Of a stretch of DNA of 64,000 bases, positions 10,302-56,075 are shown piece by piece. How positions within the stretch are numbered: the stretch's first letter is position 1; every line of letters starts with the position of its first letter. A program made the translations under genes and the position numbers. The notes below the pieces were generated by a model. The model did not search any database. It saw only the letters and a program-made list of their open reading frames with translations, and had not been told where the DNA came from. Source of the DNA: an uncultured Candidatus Saccharibacteria bacterium (GTDB lineage: Bacteria; Patescibacteriota; Minisyncoccia; Phycocordibacterales; UBA6065); assembly GCA_964495425.1 (NCBI GenBank), contig CAZBVG010000004.1, positions 63,633 through 127,632 on the forward strand. Direction: 5' to 3'.

Positions 10302-10361
10302 ACGGTTATTCTAGCATAAAAAATGCCCTGAAATCGCAAAGCGCCTGTTAATAAACATCGT

Positions 10362-12167: not shown

Positions 12168-12171
12168 ATGA

Positions 12172-12807: not shown

Positions 12808-12844
12808 GCAAATAAATTATGGGTACAGTATATCGTACTTTTTT

Positions 12845-13285: not shown

Positions 13286-13335
13286 AGGTTAAGTATAACT
13301 CAAAACAAAATCCACCTAAATAGGGTGGATTTTGT

Positions 13336-14052
13336 TTAGAGCGCGGGCTCTCGGTACGGGTCGCTTGAAGATTTTTGCGGAGGTTTTTGTTCCTGGGGAT
13401 TTTCTATCAAATTTGTTCTTTGCGCCGGAAGATTTGTGGGTTGAGCTAGTTTACTTGTAAGGAAATCCTGAGCAATTCGGTTCTTTGTGACTTCCCAAGG
13501 CTTATCTGGACCACGCTTCAACCTATCTAGATCGGGCTGTGGGACAGGCAGGATAGGTTTTACTGGTTCTGGATTTTCGATTTCAGTAAGAACTTTGCGT
13601 GGGGTCGGCATTATAACTGCTCTATTTTGTGTTGGGGTCGGTGTTGGTTGAGTTGCGGGCGTCGGTCGTGCGGGAATGTAGTTCGATGGGGGTTTAGGCG
13701 CAACAGGCACAGACTTTGGTGTTATTGGATTGCTTTCGGTATTACCTTTAATCACAAGAGCTCTATAAGCAACAAATATTTTTTCATTCACCTCTTTCAT
13801 AATAGATTCAAGGGTGTTTGGATCAAGCGAGAGTTCAACCGCAAGCGAGGATTTAACGTCAGAAGTTTTTATGAGGCCAATCAAAGTCGCAAACAGGATA
13901 TCTCCAAGCGCTCCGATTTTATCTATATGAAGATTATACTTCTTCCCTATTGTGTTATAGCTATCAGTAAAGGTATCAGAAGCAAGATAATCCTTCTGTT
14001 CATCTGATAATCGTTTATATGCCTCAAGTTTTTGTTCTTTTGGGATGTTCAT
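13336..14052 (-). CDS. Pro-rich hypothetical protein (operon member)
   Basis: 238 aa with a PT-rich linker (PTPATQPTPTPTQ) and no known domain. Confidence 0.45.
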   Translation of the reverse strand: MNIPKEQKLEAYKRLSDEQKDYLASDTFTDSYNTIGKKYNLHIDKIGALGDILFATLIGLIKTSDVKSSLAVELSLDPNTLESIMKEVNEKIFVAYRALVIKGNTESNPITPKSVPVAPKPPSNYIPARPTPATQPTPTPTQNRAVIMPTPRKVLTEIENPEPVKPILPVPQPDLDRLKRGPDKPWEVTKNRIAQDFLTSKLAQPTNLPAQRTNLIENPQEQKPPQKSSSDPYREPAL

Positions 14053-14054
14053 AT

Positions 14055-16475
14055 TTAGAAGCTCTCACCTACTGGATTATCGGTGAACCATTTATTAACC
14101 TTTTTCACGTTAGCGTCAGCATTAGGTGTAAGTGCACCATAAACTCCCCTGGCCGCATCGGCAAAACGCTTTTTAATTGCTGCTCGTTGGGTGCTATCTA
14201 ACTCGTCTATTGCCTTAGAGAGAGTCTTAGGTGTCATACGAATCGAAACTTCAAAATTGTCTAACCTGTCTTTCCACCCCAATTTCGCAATTTCATTTTC
14301 TTCTAACTTATCAAGTTCCATTTCAATGGTTGGTCCGTTAGTGCGTAGTATTGCAGCATCAAGATCCTGGTATCGAGTCTTCTTCATATCTGCCTTTATG
14401 ACGCCAGGAAGCTTCTTATTCTTCATGAGCTTATCGAACTTGTCATAATCCATGATCTTAGGATTGATGAAGTCATATGATCGAAGGTCGCCTGGAGAAA
14501 GATTCTGAAGTTCCTCGTCAGAGTGATTCCTAATAGCCTTTTTGATCTCATCAGTATTCTTGCTTTTGAGCGCAAGATTAACATCAGAGAGACGTGTTGC
14601 CCAGATTTTTTGTTTACCCGCATCGCTTTCCTGCTTATCAGCAAGATGGTCGACCTGACTCTGAGAGATGGTCTGAAGAAAGACTTCGTTCCCCAGGATT
14701 TTTTTATCAAGTTTCTCAAGTTCTTTGTTACCGAGTTTCTGAGCTTGGTCTGCAATTCTAAGCTTTGCCGCCTGAACTTTAGCATCACCATTAAAGCTTT
14801 GAAGTGCTGATGAATAATCTGCTTGTGCAGAAGCCAGCGCTGCAGCTGTTCCTGTTCCGTTTTTAAGTGCTGTAGATGCATTGTCCATAGCAAGCTTTTT
14901 CGTAATAAGATCTAAATCCTCAGCAGCTTTTTTGAGGTCGCCTTCGATGTCCTTAAGAATATTTTCATCTGCTTCGGCAATTTTGCGTTCTTCCGCCCAC
15001 GCCGCAGTCTGTGCCCCAAGCTCCTTTTTATCCCAGGCTTTTGCATCAATCTTAGCGTCGGTTGTGCTACTAAGTGAACCGCTTAAGAGTGAGCCAACAT
15101 TGGTCTTGTCGGTACCAATATTTCGTATATCAAGAGTACCCGATTTAAGTGTTTTTTGTGCGGCATCCATTGCTTTGCGTGGATCCTTTATGTATTTACC
15201 AATTTTTGATGTGGTTAGAATTGGAGGTAGGTTCTCGATAGCCGCCTTTTTAAATGCTGCACCCTTCGCCCCATTCTGCGCAGCTGCGGCCGCAAGACCT
15301 CCTCGCGCTAGAACTCGAGTTCCCATTGCAACACCACCTATTCCAAGCGTCGTTACTGCTGTTACAGCGAGTTTGCCTAAGCTGTCTGCAATTCCGCCAA
15401 GAGTCTTACCCATTTCCCCGCTATTTTCTTTTGCAATTTTAAGTACAGTACGAAGGAGGAAGATGACTAAGAAATATTGGAAAAATTGAGCTACTGTGAA
15501 ATTACTGATAAGTGCAATAGAGTTGGTCTTTGCATCAAAAAGTTTTCCACCCAAGTTTCCTAGGCTATTTATAAATTGAAGTGCTATGTAAAGCATCAAG
15601 AGAGTCGCAAGAGGAAAAACCGCTGCTGATAACAGCTCCTCTTTCCAATCTCCAGCATGCTTTTTTAACTGAGGCAATACGCCACCCATAAATCCCAGGG
15701 GCGAAAATACCAATAGAAAAAGTATCGTTATGCTTCTCGAAATAAAAAGAATCGCACAATATAAGAAGATGTAGGATGTCGTGCATACAATTATGAGTCG
15801 CAACATGACACCAATGAAACCCTTTGTGCCATCAGTTACCTGTTCCACATAATCTTGTGCATTAGCTGCGTTAGCATTCGTGGTTGCAGACCAAAATCCT
15901 ATAATACCGAGTCGTGTTGCAATGAGTCCGCTAAGACTTACAGGGCTTGATCGGTCGCTACTGTTGCTTACAAGGGTGTTTTGAACACCTTGATAGAGCC
16001 AGTTACCAAAAATGTTACTTACATCAACAACAGCTTTTGTGATGAAGAGGCTGAAGTTAATAAGAATTGCGGCAATGATCACGTTCTTAAGCATGTTCAT
16101 TGTGCCAAAACGCGTGCCATTAATGATTGTTCCTAGGCTAATCCATATGAGGATAAATATAAAGAATATATTTGCTATGTCGCGAATAATCACCCACCCA
16201 AGATTAATTGCCGGTGAAAGGCTAAATATATATGCGGTATTGATACTGAACTGGATCGCAATATCCATTATCAATCCACATAAATACATTATGCCCGCCG
16301 CAAGGGGGAGTATATAAAGCTCAAAAGGGAGCATGATGAGCCTTTGTATGGTGCCAAGGGCAATACCATCAAGGCTAAACCATCCAGCGTGGGCATGGTG
16401 AGGGATTATAAAAAGCGCAACAACAAGACTGAGGATAGAAGTGATTGCGGCAGGTTTTGTAAAGAAACGCTTCAT
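14055..16475 (-). CDS. Large polytopic membrane protein, VirB6/TrbL-like candidate with a C-terminal coiled-coil domain
   Basis: 806 aa. The N-terminal ~430 aa carry a signal peptide and many TM helices. The C-terminal ~370 aa are Ala/Lys/Asp-rich predicted coiled coil. Size and position match the VirB6-like proteins of minimal T4SS. Inference. Confidence 0.45.
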   Translation of the reverse strand: MKRFFTKPAAITSILSLVVALFIIPHHAHAGWFSLDGIALGTIQRLIMLPFELYILPLAAGIMYLCGLIMDIAIQFSINTAYIFSLSPAINLGWVIIRDIANIFFIFILIWISLGTIINGTRFGTMNMLKNVIIAAILINFSLFITKAVVDVSNIFGNWLYQGVQNTLVSNSSDRSSPVSLSGLIATRLGIIGFWSATTNANAANAQDYVEQVTDGTKGFIGVMLRLIIVCTTSYIFLYCAILFISRSITILFLLVFSPLGFMGGVLPQLKKHAGDWKEELLSAAVFPLATLLMLYIALQFINSLGNLGGKLFDAKTNSIALISNFTVAQFFQYFLVIFLLRTVLKIAKENSGEMGKTLGGIADSLGKLAVTAVTTLGIGGVAMGTRVLARGGLAAAAAQNGAKGAAFKKAAIENLPPILTTSKIGKYIKDPRKAMDAAQKTLKSGTLDIRNIGTDKTNVGSLLSGSLSSTTDAKIDAKAWDKKELGAQTAAWAEERKIAEADENILKDIEGDLKKAAEDLDLITKKLAMDNASTALKNGTGTAAALASAQADYSSALQSFNGDAKVQAAKLRIADQAQKLGNKELEKLDKKILGNEVFLQTISQSQVDHLADKQESDAGKQKIWATRLSDVNLALKSKNTDEIKKAIRNHSDEELQNLSPGDLRSYDFINPKIMDYDKFDKLMKNKKLPGVIKADMKKTRYQDLDAAILRTNGPTIEMELDKLEENEIAKLGWKDRLDNFEVSIRMTPKTLSKAIDELDSTQRAAIKKRFADAARGVYGALTPNADANVKKVNKWFTDNPVGESF

Positions 16476-16479
16476 ATAT

Positions 16480-18054
16480 TTATTGGACGGTTATGTAGTG
16501 ATCTTTAAGTCCAAGCGTGTTTCCTTGAACGTCATACACAACAGTTTGGAATGCGTAATTTCCAGGAACCCCTCCAGGCTTCTTGGTCGCGGTAATTCTC
16601 ACGGTAAAAGGTTTACCACTGTCCGTCCAAATATCACTCCACCCTACTGTCGCTTGTGGGTTTGAGGTAATCGGGAATGTGCTCGAGGTTCCATCGGCTC
16701 GGACGAATTCAATATTTATATTAGAAAATGCTACAGAGAATGGAACATCTGCCATAGTACTTGCATTCTTGAATGCTGTTCGCATGAGAAGGCCATCGGT
16801 TCGATAATTAGTTGCCAATTCCGCTTCGTAGAAAAGGGTGCTTGCAGCACTAACAAATGTTGAGTTGCCTGGATTAAGTGTTAGATCGAGCGTCTGTGTC
16901 CCGGTAGGCCCACCTACTGTTGGTGAATTACCCGACGGTCCGCCAGCGCCACCAGCCTCTACAGGAGGTGGGTTACTGAGGGCTGAATTAAAGTCGCTAG
17001 CACCAGTAGCAAGACCGGTTTTCAAGGCGCCACCAAGTGTTCCCTCGTCTCCTGTTATTACGGTAGGCTGGGCCGAGGCGTTGTAATCAGATGGTTGAAC
17101 GACAGTTTTTCGTTTTCCTCGGTTACCACCAAGAAGTCCAAATGAATTGTTCATGATTTGCTTTACAAGTTGATTTGTCAGCGCATCGTAAACAGCATTG
17201 ATGTCATTTGCGAGACCTATCTGTTGAAGATCAACATTTAGAGTTGCACTTAAACGATCTTGAATAATAATTCCTGGAGTTTCGATAGTACATGTTTCTT
17301 TTCCGGTAGCATCTTTTTCACAGAATTTCCAATTTTTGAAACCGTTACCCCAATCAAGATACTTTTCCTCTATAGCCTGGGCATCAATGATTCTTCGTGA
17401 TAACTCATCCTGCGCAATCATATATGCGCCGTAGGCATTATTTTTTGGGACGGTTGTGACTTGTAACCAGTTGTCCCATCCCCCACTATTATCTCCAGCA
17501 ACAAATCCTGTCACATTATCTATAACCTTGGTTAGCGTACACGAGGCCCGTTTGTTGTAGGGTAATCGGCTTTGTGCCAAAGCTATTCTGAGTTTGAAAG
17601 AAAATTGTGAGCACAAAAAGGGCGCTTCTTTTGCTATGAAGTCACCTATAACCTGATCCGCGGTGTCTTTGAGTAGCCCTTCAAAATTCACCTCAAATCC
17701 TGGATTTCCTTGGAAACCGTTGTTTATCCAGGCAACCGTATCCATTGTCATTTTATTAAGAAGAGCCTTTGCCATTTTTACGACAAGAGGTTTGAAAATA
17801 CAGTCAGAAACAAAGCTTCCGGCAGAGCTTAATTTTGTGGTCGAGTCGTTTGAGGTAGCGACGCGAGTCATTTCATCGGTTGCAGCGCTAAAACCAAGCG
17901 CGGCAGCAACTTGTGAAAGACATGACGCCTGCGCTGCAGACTTTTTAGGGTATAAAAAGAAACCGCTCGGTATTAGAAGAGTGAGGATGAGGACAGAAAG
18001 GACTGTTTTTTTGCAAAAACGAGAAATCATGTATCTCGAAAAGATAGAGGTCAA
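16480..18054 (-). CDS. Secreted protein with a Gly/Pro-rich region (operon member)
   Basis: 524 aa with an N-terminal TM/signal and a PPVEAGGAGGPSGNSPTVGGPTGT segment. No family recognised. Confidence 0.5.
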   Translation of the reverse strand: MTSIFSRYMISRFCKKTVLSVLILTLLIPSGFFLYPKKSAAQASCLSQVAAALGFSAATDEMTRVATSNDSTTKLSSAGSFVSDCIFKPLVVKMAKALLNKMTMDTVAWINNGFQGNPGFEVNFEGLLKDTADQVIGDFIAKEAPFLCSQFSFKLRIALAQSRLPYNKRASCTLTKVIDNVTGFVAGDNSGGWDNWLQVTTVPKNNAYGAYMIAQDELSRRIIDAQAIEEKYLDWGNGFKNWKFCEKDATGKETCTIETPGIIIQDRLSATLNVDLQQIGLANDINAVYDALTNQLVKQIMNNSFGLLGGNRGKRKTVVQPSDYNASAQPTVITGDEGTLGGALKTGLATGASDFNSALSNPPPVEAGGAGGPSGNSPTVGGPTGTQTLDLTLNPGNSTFVSAASTLFYEAELATNYRTDGLLMRTAFKNASTMADVPFSVAFSNINIEFVRADGTSSTFPITSNPQATVGWSDIWTDSGKPFTVRITATKKPGGVPGNYAFQTVVYDVQGNTLGLKDHYITVQ

Positions 18055-18066
18055 GATAATTATACA

Positions 18067-18975
18067 CTACTTTAGAAAGAGGTATCCACTTTCAAATGAG
18101 GAAAACTCCACGTTTCTATTTTTAAGGTGGCTTGATATCACTCGGAGCGCTGGATCTATAGATTTTATACCGTCTTCATAACTTAACATGAGTCGAGCTG
18201 CTCCGATTGGGTCTGAGTCTATGTATGTCATGCCCTTAATGCCCTCAATTATCGCAGAAAGTGAGTTGAGAAATGCGAGGTGGGCATCGACAAGGTTCTT
18301 TGGGACAGCTATTTGAGACGCGATTTTACGTGCCTCGGTATAGCGAGCGATATTTTGAGGTAATTTTTCGAGATATGAAGCATCGTCTGTCTCATACACA
18401 TGATTTACAATAGCGATTTCACTTTCGTATCCAACTGGGGCAGGTCTACTTATTGCTGAGGCCATCTCATTGGCATATTTTTTCAATTCTGACGGTAAAT
18501 CAGTATCTAAGACAATAATATCTGTAATTGTATAGATTTTTTCTCCCTCAGGGCCACCATAATCCTTAGTTAGAAGCTCGTTCACGAAGCGAATGGTGGT
18601 GTTTTCGTCTATTACCCCACCCTTATTCTTGAAATCTACATATTTTTCAAGAAGTTCTCTTGAAAAGCGGTCTGTTGCAGTAATCGGGGCCGTTTCAGCA
18701 TCACTTTTTTCATAAGCATCCTTTAATTCTGCGATTTTGTCGTCAGTGGTAGATGTACTACTCACAGCTAAAAGGGCCTCTTCCCAACCAGACGTGTCAA
18801 TTTGGCCATTTTGCAAGGCCTTTTTAATGCTTTCTTGTGCGATAAGGTCGATTTTCGCTCTAACTGAATTACTAGACTTCTCGGTTGCCTTTTTGAGATA
18901 AATTCCTCCCCCAATAATTACAACAGCTGCTATAAGTGAAAGGCCGATACTTGAAAAGAGAAATTTTCGAATCAT
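18067..18975 (-). CDS. Membrane-anchored protein, first gene of the T4SS-like operon
   Basis: 302 aa with an N-terminal TM (IGLSLIAAVVIIGGGIYL). Confidence 0.5.
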   Translation of the reverse strand: MIRKFLFSSIGLSLIAAVVIIGGGIYLKKATEKSSNSVRAKIDLIAQESIKKALQNGQIDTSGWEEALLAVSSTSTTDDKIAELKDAYEKSDAETAPITATDRFSRELLEKYVDFKNKGGVIDENTTIRFVNELLTKDYGGPEGEKIYTITDIIVLDTDLPSELKKYANEMASAISRPAPVGYESEIAIVNHVYETDDASYLEKLPQNIARYTEARKIASQIAVPKNLVDAHLAFLNSLSAIIEGIKGMTYIDSDPIGAARLMLSYEDGIKSIDPALRVISSHLKNRNVEFSSFESGYLFLK

Positions 18976-29375: not shown

Positions 29376-30323
29376 TTGTCTGCTATAATATTGTGCGACA
29401 TGGCATCTCTTAAAGATTTAAAAACACAATTTCTTGAATACACCGAGATAGAAAAAGGTCGTAGCTTAAATACGGTCCAGAATTATGACCGTTATCTTAC
29501 CCGTTTCCTGGCTTTTCTTAAAAAAGATTTCCCTACAGATATAACAGACTCATCGGTGCGTGAATTTCGCCTCTGGCTTAACCGTCAGGCTACGGGAAAT
29601 AACAAAAAGACGGGAGATACGCTCAAAAAGAAGACGCAAAACTATTATTTGATTGCTTTGCGAGCGTTTTTGAAATATTTGGCGCGGCAAAATGTAAAAT
29701 CGATGCCGCCAGAGCGAATTGAACTTGCAAAAGTTGGCGAACGACATATTGAGTTCATGTCGAATGAAGAATTGCATCGACTTCTTGAATCGCCCAAGGG
29801 AAATGATCTTAAATCGCTGCGCGATCGGGCAATTTTGCAAATGCTTTTCTCGACAGGACTTCGTGTCTCCGAGCTCTGTTCCCTCTCGAGAGATATTGAT
29901 CTGTCTGCGGATGAAATCTCTATTAGAGGAAAAGGTGACAAGGTGCGAGTGGTTTTCCTCTCGGACGAGGCAAAAAAAGCTACGAAGGCTTATGTAGATA
30001 AGAGAGATGATGTCGACGATTCGCTTTTTGTGAAGGTAGCAGTAGAAACACGTAACAAGGGCGAATCAATGCCACTTACACGTCGTTCTGTAGAACGAAT
30101 TGTGAAACACTACGCAACCAAGGCCGGCATTATGTCGAAAAAGGTTACACCGCACGTTATTCGTCACTCATTTGCAACAGATTTACTCTCAAACGGTGCG
30201 GATTTGCGCTCAGTACAGGCATTACTCGGCCATGCAAACATTGGAACAACACAGATATATACTCACGTAACGGATAAACATCTGCGGAATATTCACAAAC
30301 AGTTTCACAATAAGAAGAAGTAA
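29376..30323 (+). CDS. Tyrosine recombinase XerC/XerD family
   Basis: C-terminal catalytic region HVIRHSFATDLL...LGHANIGTTQIYTHV with R..H..R..Y residues. Confidence 0.85.
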   Translation: MSAIILCDMASLKDLKTQFLEYTEIEKGRSLNTVQNYDRYLTRFLAFLKKDFPTDITDSSVREFRLWLNRQATGNNKKTGDTLKKKTQNYYLIALRAFLKYLARQNVKSMPPERIELAKVGERHIEFMSNEELHRLLESPKGNDLKSLRDRAILQMLFSTGLRVSELCSLSRDIDLSADEISIRGKGDKVRVVFLSDEAKKATKAYVDKRDDVDDSLFVKVAVETRNKGESMPLTRRSVERIVKHYATKAGIMSKKVTPHVIRHSFATDLLSNGADLRSVQALLGHANIGTTQIYTHVTDKHLRNIHKQFHNKKK

Positions 30324-44262: not shown

Positions 44263-44436
44263 ATTGGGTATTGTGTGCTAAATTTCAGGCTATTAAACAA
44301 GAAAGTCCGCCCAGAGGGCGAACTTACATACAGAGAAGTATATCTTTTGAATGAATTTTTGTCAAATAGATGCTTATACACAGGTTATGTACACAATTTC
44401 GACTTTGAGTTGTCTATATCCTTGCTATGATAGAGA

Positions 44437-45678
44437 GTGATGAAATCTCTTTTTTCTAAAATAGTTTTTGCTCTTCTTTTTTCTTTGTTCCCACTTTTTG
44501 CCTCTGCAGATATCGGAAACATTACTGGTTGGGCATGGTCAGATACAATTGGCTGGATTAGTTTTACCTGCGTAAATACCGGTACGTGTGCAAGTTCGTC
44601 AGGAGTTGACTATGGTGTGACTCAAAATGCGAGCGGGGATCTAACTGGATATGCTTGGTCAGAAAATATTGGTTGGATACAGTTTGGAGGACTTTCTGGT
44701 TTTCCTGCTGGAGCAGGGACGACTGCTGCAAATGCGCGTCTTACGGGCGGTACTGTTACGGGTTGGGCGCGAGCTTGCTCAGGAACTCAAGGTGGAAATT
44801 GTTCGAGTATGACGAGTCGAACTGACGGTTGGGATGGATGGATTGCTCTTTCTGGTGCAACCTATGGAGTAACAAAATCTGGTGACAATTTCCTCGGATA
44901 TGGCTGGGGAAGTGATGTTATAGGCTGGACTCTCTTTGATATTCAAAATAAATTCCCAGCTATATGTTCAAATTGTGGACCGCAGACCGGCGGAAGCAGC
45001 GCTGATCTTGATGTGCGAAGCGGTGGTGCGGGCGGCCCAACAATTGTAGGTAATGGTGCTGTGCCATTTGGAACCATTCCTACTTTCGTATGGACAATCA
45101 ACTCAACAACGATGTCTTGTGACGTTACAAAACTCGCTGGAGGCACAGCATTTACTGCAATAACGGGCAGGACGACCTCAGGTTCTCAATCTGGAAATGC
45201 ACTCACATCACCAGGACTTCACACGTATCATCTTGAGTGTACTAACCCTGCGTTTACAAAAGACGTAAGCTTCACAGTTGCTCCGATGGCGGTTGGATTC
45301 TCACTCGGTGGAACCGAAACCGCCCGAATACAATTCCTCGGTCCAGGCGCAGCGAATTCAGAAATTAAGACTATATATGTATCACCCGGTGGAGGATTTA
45401 CTGAGCCGGTAAGCATTTCTATTACTGGTTACCCAACACCTCCAGCTGGCACGACATTCACCTATTCATTAGGAGGCGGTGCGTTCGTTGCAAATCCAGC
45501 TCCGGTCGTTATTTCAAGTCCATATGGAAGCGGGCAGACATTCCAGGTGAGAGTTTCAAAACCTATTACTACACCATATACAATTACACTCACGGGTCAG
45601 TCAGCATCAGCCGGACCGGTAACAAAGGACATTATTCTTGATCCTCGTGGATTCGATCCGTCATTTAATGAAATTTAA
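44437..45678 (+). CDS. Secreted protein with W-rich G-W/Y-AWS-x-x-IGWI-x-F repeats
   Basis: Signal peptide, then four copies of the x-G-[WY]-[AG]-W-[SG]-x-x-IGW-[IT]-x-F motif, then a Gly/Thr-rich beta-type C-terminal part. Confidence 0.5.
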   Translation: MMKSLFSKIVFALLFSLFPLFASADIGNITGWAWSDTIGWISFTCVNTGTCASSSGVDYGVTQNASGDLTGYAWSENIGWIQFGGLSGFPAGAGTTAANARLTGGTVTGWARACSGTQGGNCSSMTSRTDGWDGWIALSGATYGVTKSGDNFLGYGWGSDVIGWTLFDIQNKFPAICSNCGPQTGGSSADLDVRSGGAGGPTIVGNGAVPFGTIPTFVWTINSTTMSCDVTKLAGGTAFTAITGRTTSGSQSGNALTSPGLHTYHLECTNPAFTKDVSFTVAPMAVGFSLGGTETARIQFLGPGAANSEIKTIYVSPGGGFTEPVSISITGYPTPPAGTTFTYSLGGGAFVANPAPVVISSPYGSGQTFQVRVSKPITTPYTITLTGQSASAGPVTKDIILDPRGFDPSFNEI

Positions 45679-45949
45679 TATGAAAAAAGTTTTACTCATA
45701 CTACTCGTGTTGCTTGTTGTCGGAGGAGCTGTGTATTGGTGGATGCAGACACAGAAAAAGCCGACCGGGCCAACTTCAGAAGAGACCGCTCGAGCACTCG
45801 ATCGACTCTCCGGTAAGACGTATGAAGAACAGCCGCTCACACCAGCACAGAAACAGGCAATCGACGGACTATCAGCACAGCAAGAACAAAAGAGTGCAGC
45901 AGAGATAAAGGCAGAGGAAGACGCATTAAAATTATTACAAGGAAAATAA
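45638..45949 (+). CDS. Small membrane-anchored protein
   Basis: 103 aa with an N-terminal TM. It overlaps the upstream gene end. Confidence 0.4.
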   Translation: MILVDSIRHLMKFNMKKVLLILLVLLVVGGAVYWWMQTQKKPTGPTSEETARALDRLSGKTYEEQPLTPAQKQAIDGLSAQQEQKSAAEIKAEEDALKLLQGK

Positions 45950-45968
45950 GCACATAACATTACGAACC

Positions 45969-46559
45969 ATGACCCGAATTACAACGATTACCACAGCAGT
46001 CATAAGCGCAATACTACTCGCGCTCTTGCCAGTTGGTGCAAGTGCGTGGACAGGTCCAACGGCAGCGCCGCCAAGTAATAACGTGGCAGCGCCTCTTAAC
46101 GTTTCTGGTAGCGCACAGGCAAAGGGCGCAGGACTTCTTCTTGCGACAAGTGCAACAACCTACGGTCTTTTGGTTCAGAACGGTAATGTGGGTATCGGAC
46201 TTCTTAACCCAGGCTACAAACTTGAAATCGCAGGCAGTGTAGGAGCAAGTGCTTTCTTCTATACATCTGACAAGTCGCTTAAGACTAATATTTCTCCTCT
46301 TTCAGGATCACTTGCAAAGGTTCTTAATCTTCAGGGAGTCTCATTTAATTGGAAGGAGGGCGGTGAAAAGAGCGTAGGTCTTGTTGCTCAGGATGTGGAG
46401 AAGGTGTATCCAGAACTTGTTCATACGAACCCACAGAGCGGTCTTAAATCAGTTGAATACGGAAATCTCGTCGCCCCTCTTATTGAAGCAATCAAAGAAC
46501 AGCAGAAGCAGATTGATGACTTAAAAGCAGAGGTTAAGGCGTTAAAGGGAAATAATTAA
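45969..46559 (+). CDS. Tail-fibre-like protein with a C-terminal intramolecular chaperone (peptidase S74-like) domain
   Basis: N-terminal GNVGIGLLNPGYKLEIAGS is typical of tail-fibre-domain proteins. The C-terminal SDKSLKTNISPLSGSLAKVLNLQGVSFNWKE...VGLVAQDVEKVYPELV matches the autoproteolytic chaperone domain of phage tail spikes and endosialidases. Confidence 0.6.
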   Translation: MTRITTITTAVISAILLALLPVGASAWTGPTAAPPSNNVAAPLNVSGSAQAKGAGLLLATSATTYGLLVQNGNVGIGLLNPGYKLEIAGSVGASAFFYTSDKSLKTNISPLSGSLAKVLNLQGVSFNWKEGGEKSVGLVAQDVEKVYPELVHTNPQSGLKSVEYGNLVAPLIEAIKEQQKQIDDLKAEVKALKGNN

Positions 46560-46564
46560 AACGT

Positions 46565-47002
46565 ATGGAAACAAATAACAATAACAATAAGAATGTATTG
46601 GTGATTGGATTGGTTATCGTGGTAGTGGCAGTAGTGGCATTTCTTTATTATCGTGACAAGGGAACAACCCAAAACACGTCAACAGGAACGACTCCTGAAC
46701 TTACTCAGGATCAAAGAAAAGCTCTAGTAACAGCGATTGTTAAAGAAGCAAAAGAGACAAATGTGATTGATATTAGTGCATGTAAACCATTCCCTGAAAC
46801 AGCTCAATTCAAACAGACAGCAGCTGTAACATTCAAAAATCAAGATTCGATGTCACATGAAATTGTATTCACACCTCAACACAAGTTCACAGTACCAGGA
46901 AAAGGTGAATATAAGATCGTCTTCGATTTCTTCCAGTATCCTGGCGTTAGGCATTATACGTGTGATTCAAAATCAGTAGGAACCGTTCTCATTATTAAAT
47001 AA
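46565..47002 (+). CDS. Membrane-anchored small protein
   Basis: 145 aa with N-terminal TM VLVIGLVIVVVAVVAFLYY. Confidence 0.4.
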   Translation: METNNNNNKNVLVIGLVIVVVAVVAFLYYRDKGTTQNTSTGTTPELTQDQRKALVTAIVKEAKETNVIDISACKPFPETAQFKQTAAVTFKNQDSMSHEIVFTPQHKFTVPGKGEYKIVFDFFQYPGVRHYTCDSKSVGTVLIIK

Positions 47003-47012
47003 ACACATTCAC

Positions 47013-49403
47013 ATGAGATCTTTCGTTAAAACTATAGGTACGACCGCAGTCGCGATACTGTCGCTTTTTACAGCTACAGTTGCTTATGCTGATGTAAATA
47101 CCTATGTTTTGACGGACCACAAGGTTGAGTCAGGTACAACTGCTCGAGTGGATGAATGGGGTATTTGTTTTGATGTAACAAATGGAATTCAGAATCCTCC
47201 AATTCATATTCCTACAAAAACTGCTGCAGAGTGGGCATCATTTTATAACAATACACCACCATATGTATCACTCGCGCCTTGTGGAGGAACAGTGCAAGGA
47301 TGTACTGATACAACTGCAACAAATTATAATCCGTCTGCGACAGCAAATGACGGTTCTTGTACATATGCGCCCGCCTGTAATTCTAATGCGGGAAACATTT
47401 GTTTTTCTACACCAAACGTCTGTGGGCAGTCGAATCCTGGTGTAATTGATTGTGGTGGAGTATGTAACGCGATCACACCGCCAAATAGTAACTGTATAAC
47501 TGTTGTTGAGGGCTGTACTGATGCAAGTGCCACAAATTATAATCCAAATGCCAATGTAGATAACGGGTCCTGTGTCTACCCAGTAGGTTGTGATACGAAT
47601 GCTGGAAATAGCTGTGTCTCAGGCGCAAATGTATGCGGGCAGACTGGTTCAGGTGTTATTCAGTGTAATGGTACGTGTAGCGCGGTAACACCACCGAATT
47701 CGAATTGTCCCATGACTGTTTATGGTTGTACTGATCCGGCTGCAAATAATCACAATCCGAATGCGAACTTCGATGATGGTTCTTGTACTTACAATCCGGT
47801 TTGTGTTTCAAATGTAAATCAAGCATGTACGTCTAGTACCAATGCGTGTGGAGACAGTGGAGTTGGAACAATTCAATGTGATGGATCATGTAGCGCAACT
47901 GTTCCCTCAGTTCCTTCGAATTTAGGCGCTTCATGTAATTCAGGAGGTAACAATTGTGGTGATGTGAACGTTGGCTCAATTCAATGTGATGGTAGCTGTA
48001 GTGCAAGCCAACCGGCAGATAGAGCATCATGTTCAACATGTCCATCTGCAGGTCAACCATGTCAGTCTGCATCAAACGCGTGTGGAGATACTGCTTCAGG
48101 CACTGTTGATGGGGGATCTTGTACGTGTAATGCGGTTCCGCCAGTCACCGCTTCAAATTTTGGAGATTCATGTACTTCTGCTGCAAACGCTTGTGGGGCA
48201 ACTTCTGCGGGTACAATTCAATGTGACGGTTCATGTTCTGCAAGTATTCCTGCTAATCCAGCAAATCTCGGGGCGCCGTGCTCTACAAGCCCAAATGCCT
48301 GTGGTGCAGTAGGTGCGGGTACAATTCAATGTGACGGTTCATGTTCTGCGGGAATGCCATCTCTTCCAGCATCATATGGAAACACATGTACTTCAGGTGC
48401 AAACAATTGTGGTGCAACAGGGTCGGGCACAATAGGTTGTAGTGGTTCCTGCTCAGCAACTACACCCGCTGATGTTCCAAATGTAGGAGGGGGTTGTATG
48501 TCAGGACCAAATAATTGTGGAGATCGGGGTTCGGGTGCTATGCAATGCGATGGATCATGTAGTGCAACACAGCCTGGAGATATTAGTGGTATAGGAGGAA
48601 TTTGTTATTCAGGTGCAAATAATTGCGGTGATGTGAATACAGGTACGATGCAATGTGGTGGTTGTGATGCAGTAACGCCAGCAAATCGAACCTGTGGACC
48701 AATGGCAGTTTCTGGTTGTACGGATCCAATGGCGGACAACTACGATTCAAATGCAACAACAGATGACGGATCATGCCAAAGAACTGGTTGTACAGATCCA
48801 ATGGCGGACAACTATGATCCAAATGCAACGGGTGGTGGTGCATGTACCTATTCGATTAATTATGGTTGTACAGACCCTGGTGCAGATAATTATGATCCAT
48901 TTGCTGATGCGGATGATGGATCATGTACATATCCTTCAGCATGTGTACCTCAAGTTTGTAATGGTGCGGCATACTGGGACAGCGGATCGTGCTCATGTGC
49001 ATGCGCACCGTTCTACCATGAGGAAAATGGAGATTGTGTAGCGGATCCTATGGATCCATGTGTGAGTGACCCGTGGCTTGTTGGCTGTAGTGGTGATCCG
49101 TGTCTACTAGACCCAACTTTCCCAGGATGTTCTGATCCATGTGAACTGGACCCAGGTTACCCTGGTTGTCAGCCAATTGATCCTTGTACTCAAGATCCAA
49201 GCTCGCCAGCATGTAATCCTTGCGGTTTTGATGAAGTAAGACAGCCAGATGGTTCATGTGCAGTTGACTGTGATGCGCATCCGGCAAGTTGTATACAGTC
49301 GTGCGTCGCAGGGGATGAAGAGTGTCTTTGTAGGAATGCAGGAAAATCATGGGATGGGTATAGTTGTTGCGAAAACCTAGATGGATACGGGTATTGTATG
49401 TAA
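47013..49403 (+). CDS. Large secreted cysteine-rich tandem-repeat protein
   Basis: Signal peptide. About 6 copies of GCTD-x-x-A-x-NY(N/D)-P-x-A-x-x-DDGSC-x-Y, and about 11 copies of a ~35-aa unit C-x-S-x-x-N-x-CG-x-x-x-x-G-[TS]-[IM]-QCDGSCSA. Cys-dense C-terminus. Confidence 0.6.
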   Translation: MRSFVKTIGTTAVAILSLFTATVAYADVNTYVLTDHKVESGTTARVDEWGICFDVTNGIQNPPIHIPTKTAAEWASFYNNTPPYVSLAPCGGTVQGCTDTTATNYNPSATANDGSCTYAPACNSNAGNICFSTPNVCGQSNPGVIDCGGVCNAITPPNSNCITVVEGCTDASATNYNPNANVDNGSCVYPVGCDTNAGNSCVSGANVCGQTGSGVIQCNGTCSAVTPPNSNCPMTVYGCTDPAANNHNPNANFDDGSCTYNPVCVSNVNQACTSSTNACGDSGVGTIQCDGSCSATVPSVPSNLGASCNSGGNNCGDVNVGSIQCDGSCSASQPADRASCSTCPSAGQPCQSASNACGDTASGTVDGGSCTCNAVPPVTASNFGDSCTSAANACGATSAGTIQCDGSCSASIPANPANLGAPCSTSPNACGAVGAGTIQCDGSCSAGMPSLPASYGNTCTSGANNCGATGSGTIGCSGSCSATTPADVPNVGGGCMSGPNNCGDRGSGAMQCDGSCSATQPGDISGIGGICYSGANNCGDVNTGTMQCGGCDAVTPANRTCGPMAVSGCTDPMADNYDSNATTDDGSCQRTGCTDPMADNYDPNATGGGACTYSINYGCTDPGADNYDPFADADDGSCTYPSACVPQVCNGAAYWDSGSCSCACAPFYHEENGDCVADPMDPCVSDPWLVGCSGDPCLLDPTFPGCSDPCELDPGYPGCQPIDPCTQDPSSPACNPCGFDEVRQPDGSCAVDCDAHPASCIQSCVAGDEECLCRNAGKSWDGYSCCENLDGYGYCM
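48199..48345. repeat. Intragenic near-perfect direct DNA repeat (~38 bp units ~106 bp apart)
   Basis: gcgggtacaattcaatgtgacggttcatgttctgc occurs at 48202-48236 and again at 48308-48342. Confidence 0.7.
48715..48850. repeat. Intragenic tandem DNA repeat (~46 bp units, ~75 bp period)
   Basis: tgtacagatccaatggcggacaactacgat... at 48717 and tgtacagatccaatggcggacaactatgat... at 48792. Confidence 0.7.
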
Positions 49404-49431: not shown

Positions 49432-50883
49432 ATGAGAAGTATTAAATATTGGTCACTCTGTGTCTTGTGCGGAATTGCTTTAATTTTCTCATTATATAAA
49501 CTAGGCGATCAATCACTTTGGATTGATGAGGGTTATTCAATTAATGCAGCTGAAGGCATTCAGGAGCATGGTTTACCAGTACTAGGTTCGGGAAAGACCT
49601 ATGTTAAAGGAATTGCCTCTACCTATTTAATGGCCTTAAGCATGTCGATGTTCGGTTTTGAGGCGACGAATCCTTGGTCAGCACGATTGCCTTCAGCGAT
49701 GTTTTGGCTAATGACAATTGTAGCGATGTATTTTGTGTCAAAAAGATTTTTTGGCTCAAATACCATCGCTTTTTTGTCATCAGCAATGTTAACTTTTTTA
49801 TCGTGGGAGATAGCGTGGGCAAGGCAGGCGAGGGGATACATAGGCATGCAATTTTTTTCACTCGTGTCATTCTTTTTCTTGTATATGTGGTTTAAGGAAA
49901 GAAAGCACAAAAGTCTTTATCTTTGTTTTATCTTTTTAGGAGTTTCAATACTGTTCCATCCATCATCGGCGGTACTTATATTGCCTATGACCGGAAGCGT
50001 GATATTTGATGTGTTGAAAAGGAGAGAGGAAAGGGTGGGGCCTGCAGTATTAGCAGTCGCGGTATTGTTGATTACAGCTATATTTTTTTATGAATTTCTA
50101 TCAATTCAATTTGTAATAAGATATTCACCATCTTATTTTATTGCGATTAAGGAAAATATATTAGGGCTTTCTATTTTGGCGCTCGCAGCACCTTTTTTAC
50201 TGGCCGTAGATACAATAAACAAAAAGAAGATTTTTTTACTTGCACTTCTAGTTTTGATACCTATTTGTTTTTTGTCTTTTTATCATTATTCAACGCAACA
50301 ACGGTACTTATTCGTGCTCCTTCCGTATATTGTGCTCTTGTCAGCATTTGCTGCGGTAAGAATTTCCAAAATAGTTTTTCGGGGCAGAGCCGGGCTTGTT
50401 ATTTTGGGTGCAATTATTTTGGTTTCAGTAATCAGCTTTGATTCTTTCACTTTTTACCCACATGCGTTTTATTATGTGGAAAAGCGCTCACCGCAGCCAA
50501 ATTTTAAAGAAGCATATTTACTTATTAAAGAAAGACGAACGGGGGAAGATATTGTTGTATCTTCATACACACACCTTTCCCAAATTTATTTGAGAGATAA
50601 GGGGTATTGGTGGCCAATTGCTTTAACAACCAATAAAGACGAAATAATTCGTAATTCAATTGATGAAGTTGATTATTATACTGGCGCGCCCAAAATTAAT
50701 GGGATCGATGAACTAAAACTCCTTTTAGATAAAAATTCAGGATATATAGTATTTGATGGCTTATCGTGGATTCGATCTGGAAAAAAGGTGGCGGAGTTAA
50801 TTCGTTCCTTGAAATTAGAGTTGGTATATCACACAGGTATAAAACTAGATGAAATTTGGGTTTATAGATTTGTAAAAAAATAA
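49432..50883 (+). CDS. GT-C fold glycosyltransferase (PMT/ArnT/GT83-like)
   Basis: 483 aa polytopic protein. The first periplasmic loop has LWIDEGYS, with the DE motif typical of PMT_2/ArnT-family polyprenol-P-sugar-dependent transferases. Confidence 0.65.
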   Translation: MRSIKYWSLCVLCGIALIFSLYKLGDQSLWIDEGYSINAAEGIQEHGLPVLGSGKTYVKGIASTYLMALSMSMFGFEATNPWSARLPSAMFWLMTIVAMYFVSKRFFGSNTIAFLSSAMLTFLSWEIAWARQARGYIGMQFFSLVSFFFLYMWFKERKHKSLYLCFIFLGVSILFHPSSAVLILPMTGSVIFDVLKRREERVGPAVLAVAVLLITAIFFYEFLSIQFVIRYSPSYFIAIKENILGLSILALAAPFLLAVDTINKKKIFLLALLVLIPICFLSFYHYSTQQRYLFVLLPYIVLLSAFAAVRISKIVFRGRAGLVILGAIILVSVISFDSFTFYPHAFYYVEKRSPQPNFKEAYLLIKERRTGEDIVVSSYTHLSQIYLRDKGYWWPIALTTNKDEIIRNSIDEVDYYTGAPKINGIDELKLLLDKNSGYIVFDGLSWIRSGKKVAELIRSLKLELVYHTGIKLDEIWVYRFVKK

Positions 50884-50913
50884 AAAGTGACTCATTTCTG
50901 AGTCACTCGAATA
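50884..50913. terminator. Bidirectional terminator
   Basis: gtgactcatttctgagtcac hairpin. Confidence 0.55.
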
Positions 50914-54326: not shown

Positions 54327-56075
54327 ATGTACATCGAAGAGCAACAACTCAAAACATTCATCGCGGACTCCGGCTTAGTATCAAAAAAGGATATTGCGGA
54401 TGCAGAAAAGGAAGCGCGTGCCAAGAAAACTGGTCTTGGTGAAATTCTCGTCTCAAAAGGCAAACTCTCCGAGGATGATCTTCGCAAAACGCAGGCATAT
54501 GTTTTGGGAATTCCATTCGTGGATCTCAAAGGCCAAAAGATTGATTTTTCTGTGCTCTCACTTGTGCCTGAACCTATCGCACGAAGTCACAATATAGTCG
54601 CGTTCAAGAAAAATTCTGACACGCTTGAAGTTGCCATGCTCGATACTGATGACCTTCACGCTATCGACTTCATCAAAAAGAAGGTAGGTTTGCGCATCGT
54701 ACCGCGTCTTACCGACTCTGATTCAATCAAGTCGGTACTCTTGCAGTATCAAAAGAGCCTCAAAGCCGAATTCGGTGACCTTATCAAGCAGGAAACTGCT
54801 ACATTGAAGGCTCTCTCAGAAGAAATTGGCGATAAGGCAAGCGGCAGTGACCTCAAAAAGATGGCCGAAGACCTGCCGGTAATTCGTGTTGTCGACACTC
54901 TCTTGAAACACGCGATTATTCAAGGTGCTTCTGACGTTCATATCGAGCCAATGGAAAAAGAACTTCTTGTTCGATATCGAATTGACGGTTTGCTCCATGA
55001 TGCGATGGTGCTTCCTAAAGAAGCGGAAACATCTATCACCGCTCGTATCAAAGTGCTTTCTAATCTCAAGCTCGATGAAAAGCGTTTACCACAAGACGGT
55101 CGATTCAAAGTTGAGATGAATGACGAAAAAGTGTCGCTTCGTGTGTCGATTCTTCCCACATTTTATGGAGAAAAGACTGTTATGCGACTTTTGCGAGAAT
55201 CGGTTTCAGGATTTAGCCTCGAGCATCTCGGTTTCCATGGGGAAGCGCTTGAGCGAATTCATGCTGCTACCAAGCTTGCAACTGGAATGATTCTTGCGAC
55301 AGGTCCGACGGGATCCGGTAAATCAACTACACTCTATACCGTGCTCGATATTTTAAATACGCCTGACGTAAACATTTCTACGGTAGAGGATCCGGTTGAA
55401 TACCAGATGCCGCGAGTAAATCAGACGGCGGTTCGTCCTGATATTGGCTTTACGTTCGCGGTTGGACTTCGAACACTCGTGCGACAAGACCCGGACATTA
55501 TCATGGTGGGAGAAATTCGAGACAACGAGACGGCGGCGCTTGCTGTGAACGCTGCACTTACCGGTCACTTGGTGCTTTCTACACTCCACACCAACTCTGC
55601 AGCAGGTGCAATGCCACGTCTTCTTGATATGAAGATCGAACCGTTCCTCCTCGTCTCAACACTCTCGGTGGTAATTGGTCAAAGACTCGTGCGACGCCTC
55701 ACTGAATCTCGCGAGAGACGCCCTCTTACTAAACCCGAACTCGCTGCGCTTGGAAAAGTTGTTGATCTCGATCGAATGCTCGGTATTTTGCGAGACGAAA
55801 AGGCTATTGGTCCAAAGGATGATTGGGACAAGGTTATGTTCGGTGTTCCAAAAGTCACTCCAGAAAGTGATGGATATAAAGGGCGAGTTGGTATTCATGA
55901 AGTACTTAAAATGTCTCCTGCAATTAAGGATCTCATCATGAAAGGTGCAACTTCGGGTGCTATAGAAGAGCAGGCAAAACGAGAGGGAATGATCACCATG
56001 CTTGAGGACGGTATATACAATGCTGCTCAGGGCTACACAACTATTGAAGAAGTGCTGCGCGTCGTTACCGAATAG
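54327..56075 (+). CDS. pilB: Type IV pilus assembly / type II secretion ATPase PilB/GspE family
   Basis: N-terminal GSPII_E_N-like domain, Walker A GPTGSGKSTTL, and Asp and His boxes. Confidence 0.85.
   Translation: MYIEEQQLKTFIADSGLVSKKDIADAEKEARAKKTGLGEILVSKGKLSEDDLRKTQAYVLGIPFVDLKGQKIDFSVLSLVPEPIARSHNIVAFKKNSDTLEVAMLDTDDLHAIDFIKKKVGLRIVPRLTDSDSIKSVLLQYQKSLKAEFGDLIKQETATLKALSEEIGDKASGSDLKKMAEDLPVIRVVDTLLKHAIIQGASDVHIEPMEKELLVRYRIDGLLHDAMVLPKEAETSITARIKVLSNLKLDEKRLPQDGRFKVEMNDEKVSLRVSILPTFYGEKTVMRLLRESVSGFSLEHLGFHGEALERIHAATKLATGMILATGPTGSGKSTTLYTVLDILNTPDVNISTVEDPVEYQMPRVNQTAVRPDIGFTFAVGLRTLVRQDPDIIMVGEIRDNETAALAVNAALTGHLVLSTLHTNSAAGAMPRLLDMKIEPFLLVSTLSVVIGQRLVRRLTESRERRPLTKPELAALGKVVDLDRMLGILRDEKAIGPKDDWDKVMFGVPKVTPESDGYKGRVGIHEVLKMSPAIKDLIMKGATSGAIEEQAKREGMITMLEDGIYNAAQGYTTIEEVLRVVTE

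Follow-up and report, generated by a model that had tools for sequence, protein, structure and literature searches.

A predicted minimal S74-capped surface fibre encoded by the chromosome of a Patescibacteria bacterium

The 64,000-nucleotide stretch of contig CAZBVG010000004.1 analysed here over its full length (the window) harbors at positions 45969..46559 an ATG-initiated open reading frame (ORF) for a 196-amino-acid protein (20.2 kDa precursor) made up, in this order, of a predicted signal peptide, an N-terminal module, a short stalk and a C-terminal Peptidase_S74 domain (coordinates refer to the forward strand unless marked (-)). We propose, with a probability of about 0.62, that this gene encodes a cell-made, exported, homotrimeric and self-cleaving mini-fibre held on the cell surface of a bacterium from the CPR (candidate phyla radiation)/Patescibacteria. 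The distinctive part of the protein is not its S74 end; it is the cell-specific N-terminal module, together with the linkage of the family to type IV pilus loci. A host surface fibre, as suggested by the initial annotation of the window, is a reasonable prediction for which the mosaic adhesive trimeric (MAT) fibres of Bdellovibrio provide the precedent (PMC10769870). The initial annotation had treated the protein as an isolated curiosity; it belongs instead, as a minimal representative, to a very large family in the Patescibacteria.

The S74 domain, the N-terminal module and the protein family

The C-terminal intramolecular chaperone (Peptidase_S74) domain spans residues 100-196 (46266..46556; 10.5 kDa) and ends with a long helix (residues 164-195). 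Pfam PF13884 (Peptidase_S74, 'Chaperone of endosialidase') matched residues 100-152 with an E value of 2.2e-16, covering model positions 1-58 of 58 and scoring 60.3 bits where the gathering cut-off is 22. The initial annotation had assigned the last ~110 residues to this domain and proposed a hidden Markov model (HMM) search; with this strong match, and with the profile and fold comparisons described below, the assignment stands, although the domain measures ~97 residues. Tail-fibre and baseplate families of the PHROGs library aligned with residues ~44-195 at E values as low as 7e-36, each of these alignments falling at the very C-terminal end of the phage profile, and the search of NCBIfam yielded no match. 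A profile built from 61 relatives of the protein was compared to solved structures, where it matched gp37 of phage S16 (6f45, E=1.6e-13), the ICA domain of MyRF (7dc3, E=2.5e-11), a phage tail fibre (8jov, E=2e-10) and the L-shaped fibre of phage T5 (8hqz, E=0.007), as well as, in the stalk region, the Bdellovibrio fibre structures Bd2133 (8ond, E=5e-6), Bd1334 and Bd2439.

The predicted autoproteolytic site and Ser-Lys dyad, S100-D-K-S-L-K105 (46266..46283), with a predicted cut directly before S100, fits the SDxxxK motif and aligned to SDRRIK in 6f45, SDERLK in 8jov and ADLRAK in the crystallised MyRF chain; S100, D101 and K105 were invariant across the 61 relatives. An AlphaFold2 (AF2) monomer model computed on the 61-sequence alignment reached a mean predicted local distance difference test score (pLDDT) of 81.6, with values above 90 over residues 100-190 and of 55-60 over residues 27-65, and showed, besides helix 164-195 of the S74 domain, an N-terminal helix at residues 2-24. 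The top match of this model among PDB structures in Foldseek was the MyRF ICA domain (7dc3, E=2.9e-6, TM-score of 0.71 on the target), followed by the endosialidase chaperone 3gw6, with a probability of 0.94-1.0 but an E value of only 0.02-0.1. By its HMM match, its SDxxxK dyad and its fold, the protein is thus a member of the S74 family. No paralogue was found elsewhere in the 64-kb window by tblastn and motif scan.

The short stalk upstream of the domain (residues 66-99; 46164..46265) consists of predicted beta strands and carries a 'capping-loop'-like motif (…GNVGIGLLNPGYKLEIAGSVGASAFFYT). The motif GNVGIGLLNPGYKLEIAG at residues 71-89, which the initial annotation had read as G-N-VGIG-NPGYKLEI-G and misplaced at the N-terminus, adjoins the predicted cleavage site on its upstream side and aligns with the beta-helical stalk of MyRF. 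The single capping-loop-like motif of the protein, at residues 74-85, resembles the capping-loop consensus of the S74 fibres in PMC10769870. Trimerisation and self-cleavage of S74 domains were established by work on endosialidase and phage T5 pb1, as cited in PMC10769870, and in Bd3182, which displays the SDxxxK motif, the Ser-to-Ala mutant S782A blocks cleavage (PMC10769870). By homology to endosialidase, T5 pb1, MyRF and Bd3182, the window protein would be expected to trimerise and cleave itself. The masses computed after both predicted cleavages are 7.1 kDa for a mature chain of 73 residues (27-99) and 10.5 kDa for the chaperone.

At the other end of the protein, residues 1-26 (45969..46046; MTR, a hydrophobic core, then GASA↓W) are predicted on a heuristic basis to be a Sec signal peptide. 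They are followed by a conserved mature N-terminal module (residues 27-58; 46047..46142; WTGPTAAPPSNNVAAPLNVSGSAQAKGAGLLL), of which P34, N38, P42, Q50 and K52 are invariant in the N-region alignment A2. The consensus of the block reads W-T/S-x-P-T/S-x-x-P-P-x-G-N-x-x-A-P-L/I-N-V-S/G-x-x-x-Q-x-K-x-G-x-L. Among 215 proteins carrying it, Trp occupies position +1 in 95%, Ala position -1 in 80% and V/A/I/L position -3 in 83%; K or R occurs in the n-region of 210 of them, and 213 have a site of the signal peptidase I (SPase-I) type (A/G/S at -1, small or aliphatic at -3) that precedes the conserved Trp by 0-2 residues. Because this site abuts the Trp in 213 of the 215, the block very probably is the mature N-terminus. 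The identity of a type IV pilin was ruled out, the protein showing no class III signal (no PF07963 match and no G-F-T-L-I-E-type motif) and an AxA↓W site.

The N-terminal module was next searched for as a 45-column profile in 1.84 billion representative proteins, counting clusters at 50% identity. It was found in 8,291 clusters at E≤1e-3 and in 2,429 at E≤1e-10, nearly always at residues ~24-71, and no Pfam or NCBIfam model was found for it. An S74 domain terminated only 8 of the best 148 module-bearing representatives. Other carriers sampled ended in a collagen triple helix, a gp53-like tail-fibre C-terminus, Gly_rich_2, fn3 with endostatin/lectin-like domains, or unassigned Cys-rich regions, and non-S74 paralogues bearing the module adjoin the S74 ones at loci L003 and L020. 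Most carriers of the module are secreted proteins of 150-450 amino acids with diverse Cys-rich or fibre-like C-termini, some of them with two to four copies of the block.

Viral contigs carry S74 domains up to 57% identical to that of the window protein, and in 80 viral loci the similarity stays for the most part within residues ~85-195. In none of these 80 loci (865 kb, with related S74 domains) was the block found behind a signal sequence, versus 14 occurrences in 82 cellular loci. The S74 stalk is therefore one of several cargoes borne by a cell-specific module. Phage fibres are devoid of an N-terminal Sec signal, and the S74 protein has a predicted one. The combination of a module with swapped cargoes follows the same 'mosaic' logic as the MAT fibres, with a different N-terminus.

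Homology searches with the window protein returned at least 597 proteins at E≤1e-3, whose named sources were only Parcubacteria, Paceibacterota, Taylorbacteria or unclassified 'bacterium' bins and which NCBI already labels 'tail fiber domain-containing protein'. The plan shared by the family comprises a signal sequence, the N-terminal block, a middle part of variable length, a GNVGIG…KL.V motif and SDxxLK with the S74 domain. Short members are abundant and uniform, 61 of the best 120 matches measuring 170-215 residues. At the same chromosomal position, the fibre is 187 residues long at locus L166, 192 at L083, 195 at L082 and L168 and 196 in the window, then 204 at L165, 207 at L084, 284 at L003, 516 at L037, 653 at L019 and 697 at L015; the divergent fibre of L017 is 941 residues long, and capping-loop motifs number three in L015 and four in L017. 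Despite this range of lengths, the syntenic orthologues all retain the N-terminal module and the S74 end, and they therefore point to the indel-driven modularity expected of fibres. The window protein represents the minimal form of the family.

In several relatives of 260-330 residues, an internal stalk segment (residues 110-182 of P0019, 131-197 of P0030) matched positions 210-281 of PF04917 Shufflon_N at E values of 1e-10 to 1e-13; this family represents the part of the R64 PilV pilus-tip adhesins that stays constant. The match is a hint at a stalk module common to the S74 fibres and to pilus adhesins of the PilV type. The alternative that the Shufflon_N matches denote a pilin-like N-terminus was rejected, since they map to the internal stalk (residues 110-182 in P0019). 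S74 proteins 49-60% identical over the stalk and S74 region were also found in bins labelled Woesearchaeota/Nanoarchaeota (L004, L014 and L024; P0456 from 'Candidatus Nanoarchaeia'), the one at L014 being a 229-residue protein with an N-terminal hydrophobic segment. Archaeal episymbionts may truly encode these proteins, or the contigs may have been wrongly placed in the DPANN bins. Among the 80 best cellular relatives over the stalk and S74 domain (L003-L081), many CPR classes, Bdellovibrionales/Oligoflexia, Omnitrophota and DPANN-labelled bins were prominent, in addition to Bacteroidota; this prominence of predatory and episymbiotic lineages comes from a plain listing and is not a controlled enrichment.

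Chromosomal ownership and linkage to type IV pilus genes

The 64-kb window is core chromosome. It encompasses PBP1a, dnaN, dnaA and yidC (0.1-7 kb); a patescibacterial-type type IV secretion system (T4SS) cluster with VirB4/TraG-like and VirB6-like genes (~8-19 kb); ksgA, uvrD, an M23/LysM peptidase, comM, a Xer-type recombinase, exoIII and the CCA-adding enzyme (~19.8-33 kb); four tRNAs (33.9-36.1 kb); RNase Y, clpP, rsmE, tig, ppa and nusA (36.7-44.3 kb); and GT2, dsbA, pilB, SIMPL and folD (52-58 kb). All window ORFs of at least 100 amino acids, bar a few small or overlapping ones, were scanned against Pfam for phage families. No family of capsid, terminase, portal, tube, sheath or baseplate proteins was detected in the window or in 8 syntenic loci, and the S74 protein lies within no phage or tailocin structural module in any of them. 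The initial annotation's remark that no phage structural gene flanks the gene thus holds over the whole 64 kb, and the look into related genomes that it had advised gave the same result at the relatives' syntenic loci.

The sole protein of the Phage_integrase family in the window (29376-30323, forward strand; 315 residues) displays a SAM_1 N-domain and a XerC/D architecture; it is located 16 kb from the S74 gene amidst housekeeping genes (an NYN-domain protein, exonuclease III), and no mobile-element genes were seen adjoining it. There was no tRNA within 8 kb of the gene cluster to which the S74 gene belongs and no att-like direct repeat flanking it, a 17-nt AT-rich pair at 44453/50363 falling inside coding sequence and looking like chance. 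On the strength of the phage-free window, the Xer architecture of the integrase hit and the lack of att repeats and tRNA, a prophage or tailocin remnant was rejected. Recent horizontal acquisition was discarded as well for want of a compositional signal, the GC content (0.464) and the GC content at third codon positions (GC3, 0.376) of the S74 gene being inside the housekeeping range. Its codon-frequency correlation was lower (0.52), but this was common to all secreted proteins of the cluster and is therefore probably an effect of amino acid composition.

Both halves of the S74 protein are under purifying selection. Compared to the 82%-identical orthologue at L082, the ratio of nonsynonymous to synonymous substitution rates (dN/dS) was 0.13 overall, 0.127 over residues 27-99 and 0.064 over residues 100-196, with a dS of ~1; only L082 yielded a usable ratio, because dS was saturated for the orthologues with 54-60% identity. 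An identical S74 protein was present on 7 contigs from independent assemblies, the longest of which spans 180 kb. Synteny beside nusA was conserved in genomes whose NusA proteins are 67-96% identical, the NusA of the window being itself 89-96% identical to that of metagenome-assembled genomes (MAGs) of Paceibacterota and Ca. Taylorbacteria, which suggests a Paceibacteria/Parcubacteria-type host within the Patescibacteria. Given a dN/dS of 0.13 and the identical protein on 7 contigs, this is a maintained gene rather than a decaying prophage fragment. The overall interpretation offered by the initial annotation is borne out to this extent, the dN/dS, the host-range GC and GC3, the synteny beside nusA and the Sec signal all speaking for a gene owned by the cell.

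The S74 gene pairs with a small membrane protein and with a GW-repeat/Ig-like protein. In 10 of 10 loci (L003, L015, L037, L082-L084 and L165-L168), a single-pass membrane protein of 89-120 residues with two to three 'LTPEQKxAL…LSAP' repeats was encoded 5-54 bp upstream of the fibre gene, and this partner was kept even at L167, where the remaining context differs. Its counterpart in the window (45668..45949) is a 93-residue single-pass membrane protein with 'LTPxQKxAI..LSA' repeats, whose gene ends 19 bp before the S74 start.

A PilB-type type IV pilus assembly ATPase (T2SSE and MshEN domains; 54327..56075) is encoded 7.8 kb downstream of the S74 gene on the same strand; in relatives, the fibre module leads straight on to it. 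PilB was found within the fetched flanks of 9 of 17 loci with N-motif S74 proteins. At L084, the S74 gene is followed by a gene for a 251-residue protein, PilB, PilC, three N_methyl pilins and a gene for a 622-residue protein; at L165, by a gene for a 335-residue protein, PilB, PilC and two N_methyl proteins; and at L037, by PilB, PilC and pilin-like genes. As for the window and loci L082 and L168, a distance of 7.7-8.4 kb separates the fibre gene from a PilB gene located downstream in the same orientation. At L017, with a PilB of only 39% identity, the 941-residue N-motif S74 fibre is followed by a GW-like protein, PilM, PilB and PilT.

Fusions between a prepilin and an S74 domain were found outside the Patescibacteria. 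A 335-residue protein of an Oligoflexia MAG (L034:5284-6288, forward strand; BOLD01000004.1) combines a true class III prepilin signal (N_methyl PF07963, …G↓FSLIEVMIVIG…) with a C-terminal S74 domain; there are about 30 full-length relatives, in at least 14 of which both Pfam domains are precomputed. We know of no description of a pilin ending in a trimerising, self-cleaving phage-fibre domain. These Bdellovibrionota fusions are a hint, independent of the Patescibacteria loci, of a link between pili and fibres. The prepilin-S74 proteins (P0389-P0422) are ~305-389 residues long, and Bdellovibrio sp. ArHS has two of them side by side (OM95_08925 and OM95_08930).

In TM7x, the pili named T4P-2 were proposed to serve long-range tethering, and 'additional close-proximity adhesins' were proposed alongside (PMC12206443). 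Since the pilus adhesin candidates of this organism, PilX1 and PilX2, are devoid of PilD signals (PMC12206443), a Sec-exported fibre in a pilus locus has precedent.

Proposed mechanism, competing explanations and known counterparts

In the mechanism that we propose, Sec export followed by a signal-peptidase cut after Ala26 would expose W27-T-G-P-T…P-P…N…A-P-L-N-V. The S74 domain (residues 100-196) would act as an intramolecular chaperone, three copies of which would join via their C-terminal helices, and the S74 trimer would then template an interdigitated trimeric beta-stalk of residues ~66-99. Once the trimer is formed, the Ser100/Lys105 dyad would cut before Ser100, freeing the 10.5 kDa chaperone, and the 7.1 kDa mature peptide (27-99) would be left as a trimer of great stability. 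The N-terminal module would hold the fibre on the envelope, its preferred partner being the co-transcribed membrane protein (45668-45949) and/or the linked type IV pilus, and the distal stalk, exposed by cleavage, would be the interacting face. It is the gene context that suggests surface anchoring, pilus association and a role in attachment.

A number of observations weigh against this proposal. With only 73 residues per chain, the mature product is far shorter than any characterised S74 fibre, and its stalk is conserved rather than variable, unlike a diversifying receptor-binding tip. The PilB gene of the window is 7.8 kb away with opposite-strand genes in between, and L083, L166, L167 and L020 show no pilus gene within 10 kb. 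The linkage to pilus genes is largely one inherited gene order (the nusA-adjacent cluster) plus the divergent L017, such that independent observations of it are few. Cleavage of the signal peptide is a heuristic call, and the hydrophobic segment might remain in place and anchor the protein in the membrane. Finally, the N-terminal module, for which no fold or partner is known, was modelled poorly as a monomer (pLDDT ~55-60).

Part of the evidence would also suit a structural element of the envelope, for instance a spacer in the cell wall or S-layer, a plug, or else a scaffold nucleating longer N-motif fibres, with no part in recognition or in pili: the mature portion is tiny (73 residues) and conserved (dN/dS of 0.127) with no sign that a tip diversifies, the short class is abundant and uniform (170-215 residues in 61 of the best 120 matches), several loci are without a nearby pilus gene, and the neighbours include envelope-type proteins (the PMT_2 glycosyltransferase, GT2 and DsbA). 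We nonetheless deem such a role unlikely, in that syntenic orthologues reach 516-697 residues with repeated capping-loop motifs, like true fibres, that the module recurs beside PilB, PilC and pilins while S74 is fused to pilins in another phylum, and that the characterised cellular S74 fibres are adhesins (PMC10769870). Were the gene only to encode an envelope spacer, its assignment would amount to the routine domain annotation that NCBI already makes. The protein might otherwise work as a regulated switch in the manner of MyRF, keeping its N-terminal anchor uncleaved while trimerisation and cleavage release the 10.5 kDa domain or alter the tethered stub. The closest fold is that of the MyRF ICA domain, a release switch, the S74 half is the more conserved one (dN/dS of 0.064), and a hydrophobic segment of 17-20 residues is borderline for an anchor. 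This scenario is improbable, however, because an AxA-type site abutting the conserved Trp in 213 of 215 members favours cleavage, because the same module carries collagen, lectin and other non-S74 cargoes unable to switch, and because no activity is known for an S74 domain once set free.

We give very little credit to a decaying prophage or tailocin fibre remnant, or a misassembled phage fragment, with no function in the cell. Phage tail-fibre PHROGs are the strongest matches in the family libraries and the S74 domains of viral contigs are up to 57% identical to that of the window protein; a dN/dS of 0.13, the identical protein on 7 contigs and the conserved nusA-side synteny all oppose such a reading, as do the Sec signal, the cell-specific module that none of 80 viral loci carried, the host-like composition of the gene, the lack of phage structural, terminase, sheath or tube genes in 64 kb, and the lack of att-like repeats and of a nearby tRNA. 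Least credible of all is an anti-phage decoy whose S74 domain co-assembles with incoming phage fibre chains and poisons their trimerisation. Hetero-trimerisation is conceivable at 45-57% similarity between the S74 domains, but there are no defence genes nearby, the same module carries many unrelated extracellular cargoes, and, having an export signal, the window protein would be kept apart from the cytoplasm, in which phage fibres fold.

Returning to the exported mini-fibre, the closest characterised analogue is the S74 subgroup of the MAT fibres of Bdellovibrio bacteriovorus, exemplified by Bd3182 (Caulton et al. 2024, PMC10769870). As in those fibres, the gene is chromosomal in a bacterium living on other bacteria, and the product combines a signal peptide and a conserved N-terminal region with a predicted trimeric beta-helical stalk, a capping loop of the V-G-x-x-x-x-P-x-x-x-L type and a C-terminal S74 domain with SDxxxK; the N-motif superfamily likewise includes both S74-ended members and non-S74 members with swapped tips. 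MAT fibres, however, measure ~1,000 residues and have a beta-rich N-terminal domain of ~130 residues starting with …LTYQGRI…, whereas the window protein (196 residues) has a Pro-rich module of ~32 residues of unrelated sequence, essentially no stalk and no distinct tip domain. In line with this, the Bdellovibrio relatives at L031, L044 and L045 start with …LTYQGRI/ITFQGQL… and lack the W-T-x-P…P-P…N motif. The hosts differ as well, a monoderm-like CPR bacterium as opposed to a diderm predator, and so does the nature of the evidence, surface localisation and cleavage of MAT fibres having been demonstrated experimentally (PMC10769870) and the window protein being known as a sequence. Its N-terminal domain and size thus set the protein apart from the MAT family, although its architecture would appear to work like that of a MAT fibre. 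The cell-encoded, S74-capped fibres of Bdellovibrio were shown in 2024 to be prey-recognition adhesins, and the authors raised a possible interplay of MAT fibres with type IV pili (PMC10769870).

With the C-terminal chaperone domains of phage fibres (K1F endosialidase, 3GW6; T5 pb1, 4UW8/8HQZ; S16 gp37, 6F45; MEROPS S74), the protein shares the HMM, profile and fold matches, an SDxxxK motif at the start of the domain and its extreme C-terminal position after a beta-helical segment. It differs from them in having a Sec signal and a cell module in place of a virion context and an N-terminal virion-attachment domain, and in being 5-10 times shorter than typical phage fibres. The best structural match, the ICA domain of eukaryotic MyRF/MrfA (7DC3), extends to the upstream stalk, where 'G-x-VGI-x-T-x-x-P-x-x-x-L-x-V-x-GNV' aligns too, and is another instance of a phage-type domain serving a cellular protein. 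In MyRF, though, the domain sits in the middle of the protein, where it detaches the transcription factor at the N-terminus from the membrane anchor at the C-terminus, while that of the window protein is terminal, predicted to be extracytoplasmic and bacterial.

Non-pilin adhesins of type IV pili (PilY1; PilX1 and PilX2 of TM7x, PMC12206443) are encoded in or beside pilus operons, are exported without a PilD-type signal and were proposed to reside on pili; the window family resembles them in its synteny with PilB, PilC and pilins, which suggests association with pili. There is no kinship in sequence or fold, a beta-propeller contrasting with a trimeric fibre. Trimeric autotransporter adhesins (TAAs) are trimeric fibre-like surface proteins, as predicted for the window protein, in which no YadA-type anchor or any TAA Pfam domain was detected at E≤1. 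TAAs need an outer membrane and trimerise via a C-terminal beta-barrel instead of a cleaved S74 domain. The window protein is neither a TAA nor a virion component, and the JGI label of trimeric autotransporter borne by relatives P0009 and P0038 looks like a mis-annotation.

A central question about CPR/Patescibacteria, still open, is how they recognize host cells and stay attached to them. For long-range tethering, type IV pili have been implicated, and the 'close-proximity adhesins' remain unidentified (PMC12206443). The large pilus-linked fibre family of Paceibacteria, its relatives in other CPR lineages and DPANN-labelled bins, the previously unmodelled N-terminal module and the 196-residue minimal member are candidates for this missing layer. 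Tentatively, and with more doubt than confidence, the 196-residue protein could be regarded as the minimal member of a Patescibacteria-wide mosaic trimeric fibre system, a CPR counterpart of the MAT fibres in which a shared N-terminus docks interchangeable cargoes onto a membrane partner or type IV pili for close-range host recognition by ultra-small episymbionts; the prepilin-S74 fusions of Bdellovibrionota would then be a covalent version of the same pilus-fibre partnership. Neither the idea of a cell-encoded S74 fibre (Bdellovibrio in 2024; MyRF) nor the annotation of the domain in these genomes is new. A literature search joining S74 or intramolecular chaperones with CPR, Patescibacteria or DPANN found no publication, which is not proof that the family is undescribed. 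The Patescibacteria family, its N-terminal module, its fixed membrane partner, the linkage to pilus loci and the 196-residue minimal form thus appear to be undescribed in the searchable literature. At this size, the protein is an unusually small and tractable construct for S74-driven trimerisation and cleavage.

The surrounding gene cluster and the start of the window

The S74 gene is the third of a six-gene, same-strand run encoding secreted and membrane proteins. The first gene (44440..45678) encodes a secreted protein of 412 residues and overlaps by 11 bp that of the 93-residue membrane partner; the S74 gene is followed after 5 bp by a gene for a 145-residue single-pass membrane protein (46565..47002), after a further 10 bp by that of a secreted, Cys-rich repeat protein of 796 residues (47013..49403), and after 28 bp by the last gene, encoding a PMT_2 protein/lipid glycosyltransferase of the GT-C type (49432..50883). 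The spacing of the six genes (-11, 19, 5, 10 and 28 bp) and the presence of a hairpin with a 10-bp stem (50885-50908) only after the last of them suggest one operon. Predicted promoters were no more common than in shuffled sequence, and none was found on the forward strand in the 44263-44439 gap upstream of the cluster. It is a speculation that the PMT_2 enzyme of the operon could O-glycosylate the T/S-P-rich module.

The 412-residue protein has an N-domain with four 'G-W/Y-A-W-S-x-x-I-G-W-I-x-F' repeats (GWxWSxxIGWIxF-type) followed by tandem Ig-like beta-sandwich domains (AF2 pLDDT of 88); neither Pfam nor the PDB sequences returned a match. The family of this protein is large and CPR-specific (at least 1,338 matches at E≤1e-5), and in relatives the GW-repeat N-domain is fused to laminin-G, BNR/sortilin, fn3, CARDB or TSP1 domains. 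The 145-residue protein downstream of the fibre gene displays one unit similar to those of the upstream membrane protein (TPELTQDQRKAL) and then a beta-rich domain. In the 796-residue protein, for which the Pfam scan gave no match, internal repeats of 108 nt and 213 nt are found, the 108-nt period corresponding to 36-residue Cys-rich repeats (C-x-S-x-x-N-x-C-G-x-x-x-x-G-x-I-Q-C-D-G-S-C-S-A), along with 'G-C-T-D-x-x-A-x-N-Y-N-P-x-A-x-x-D-D-G-S-C' units; its N-terminal ~90 residues recur beside the S74 genes of L020, L046, L082 and L083.

With dnaN (2824-3924 (-)), dnaA (4155-5498 (-)) and yidC (6191-6928, forward strand) between 2824 and 6928, the window probably spans the region of the chromosomal replication origin. 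The T4SS-like cluster that follows (~8224-18975 (-)) comprises a weak T4SS_pilin match (8224-9333), several ORFs that matched no family, a VirB4/TraG-type ATPase (10362-12167) and a TrbL/VirB6-like protein of 806 residues (14055-16475), and is consistent with the monoderm-type T4SS reportedly described of late in Patescibacteria.

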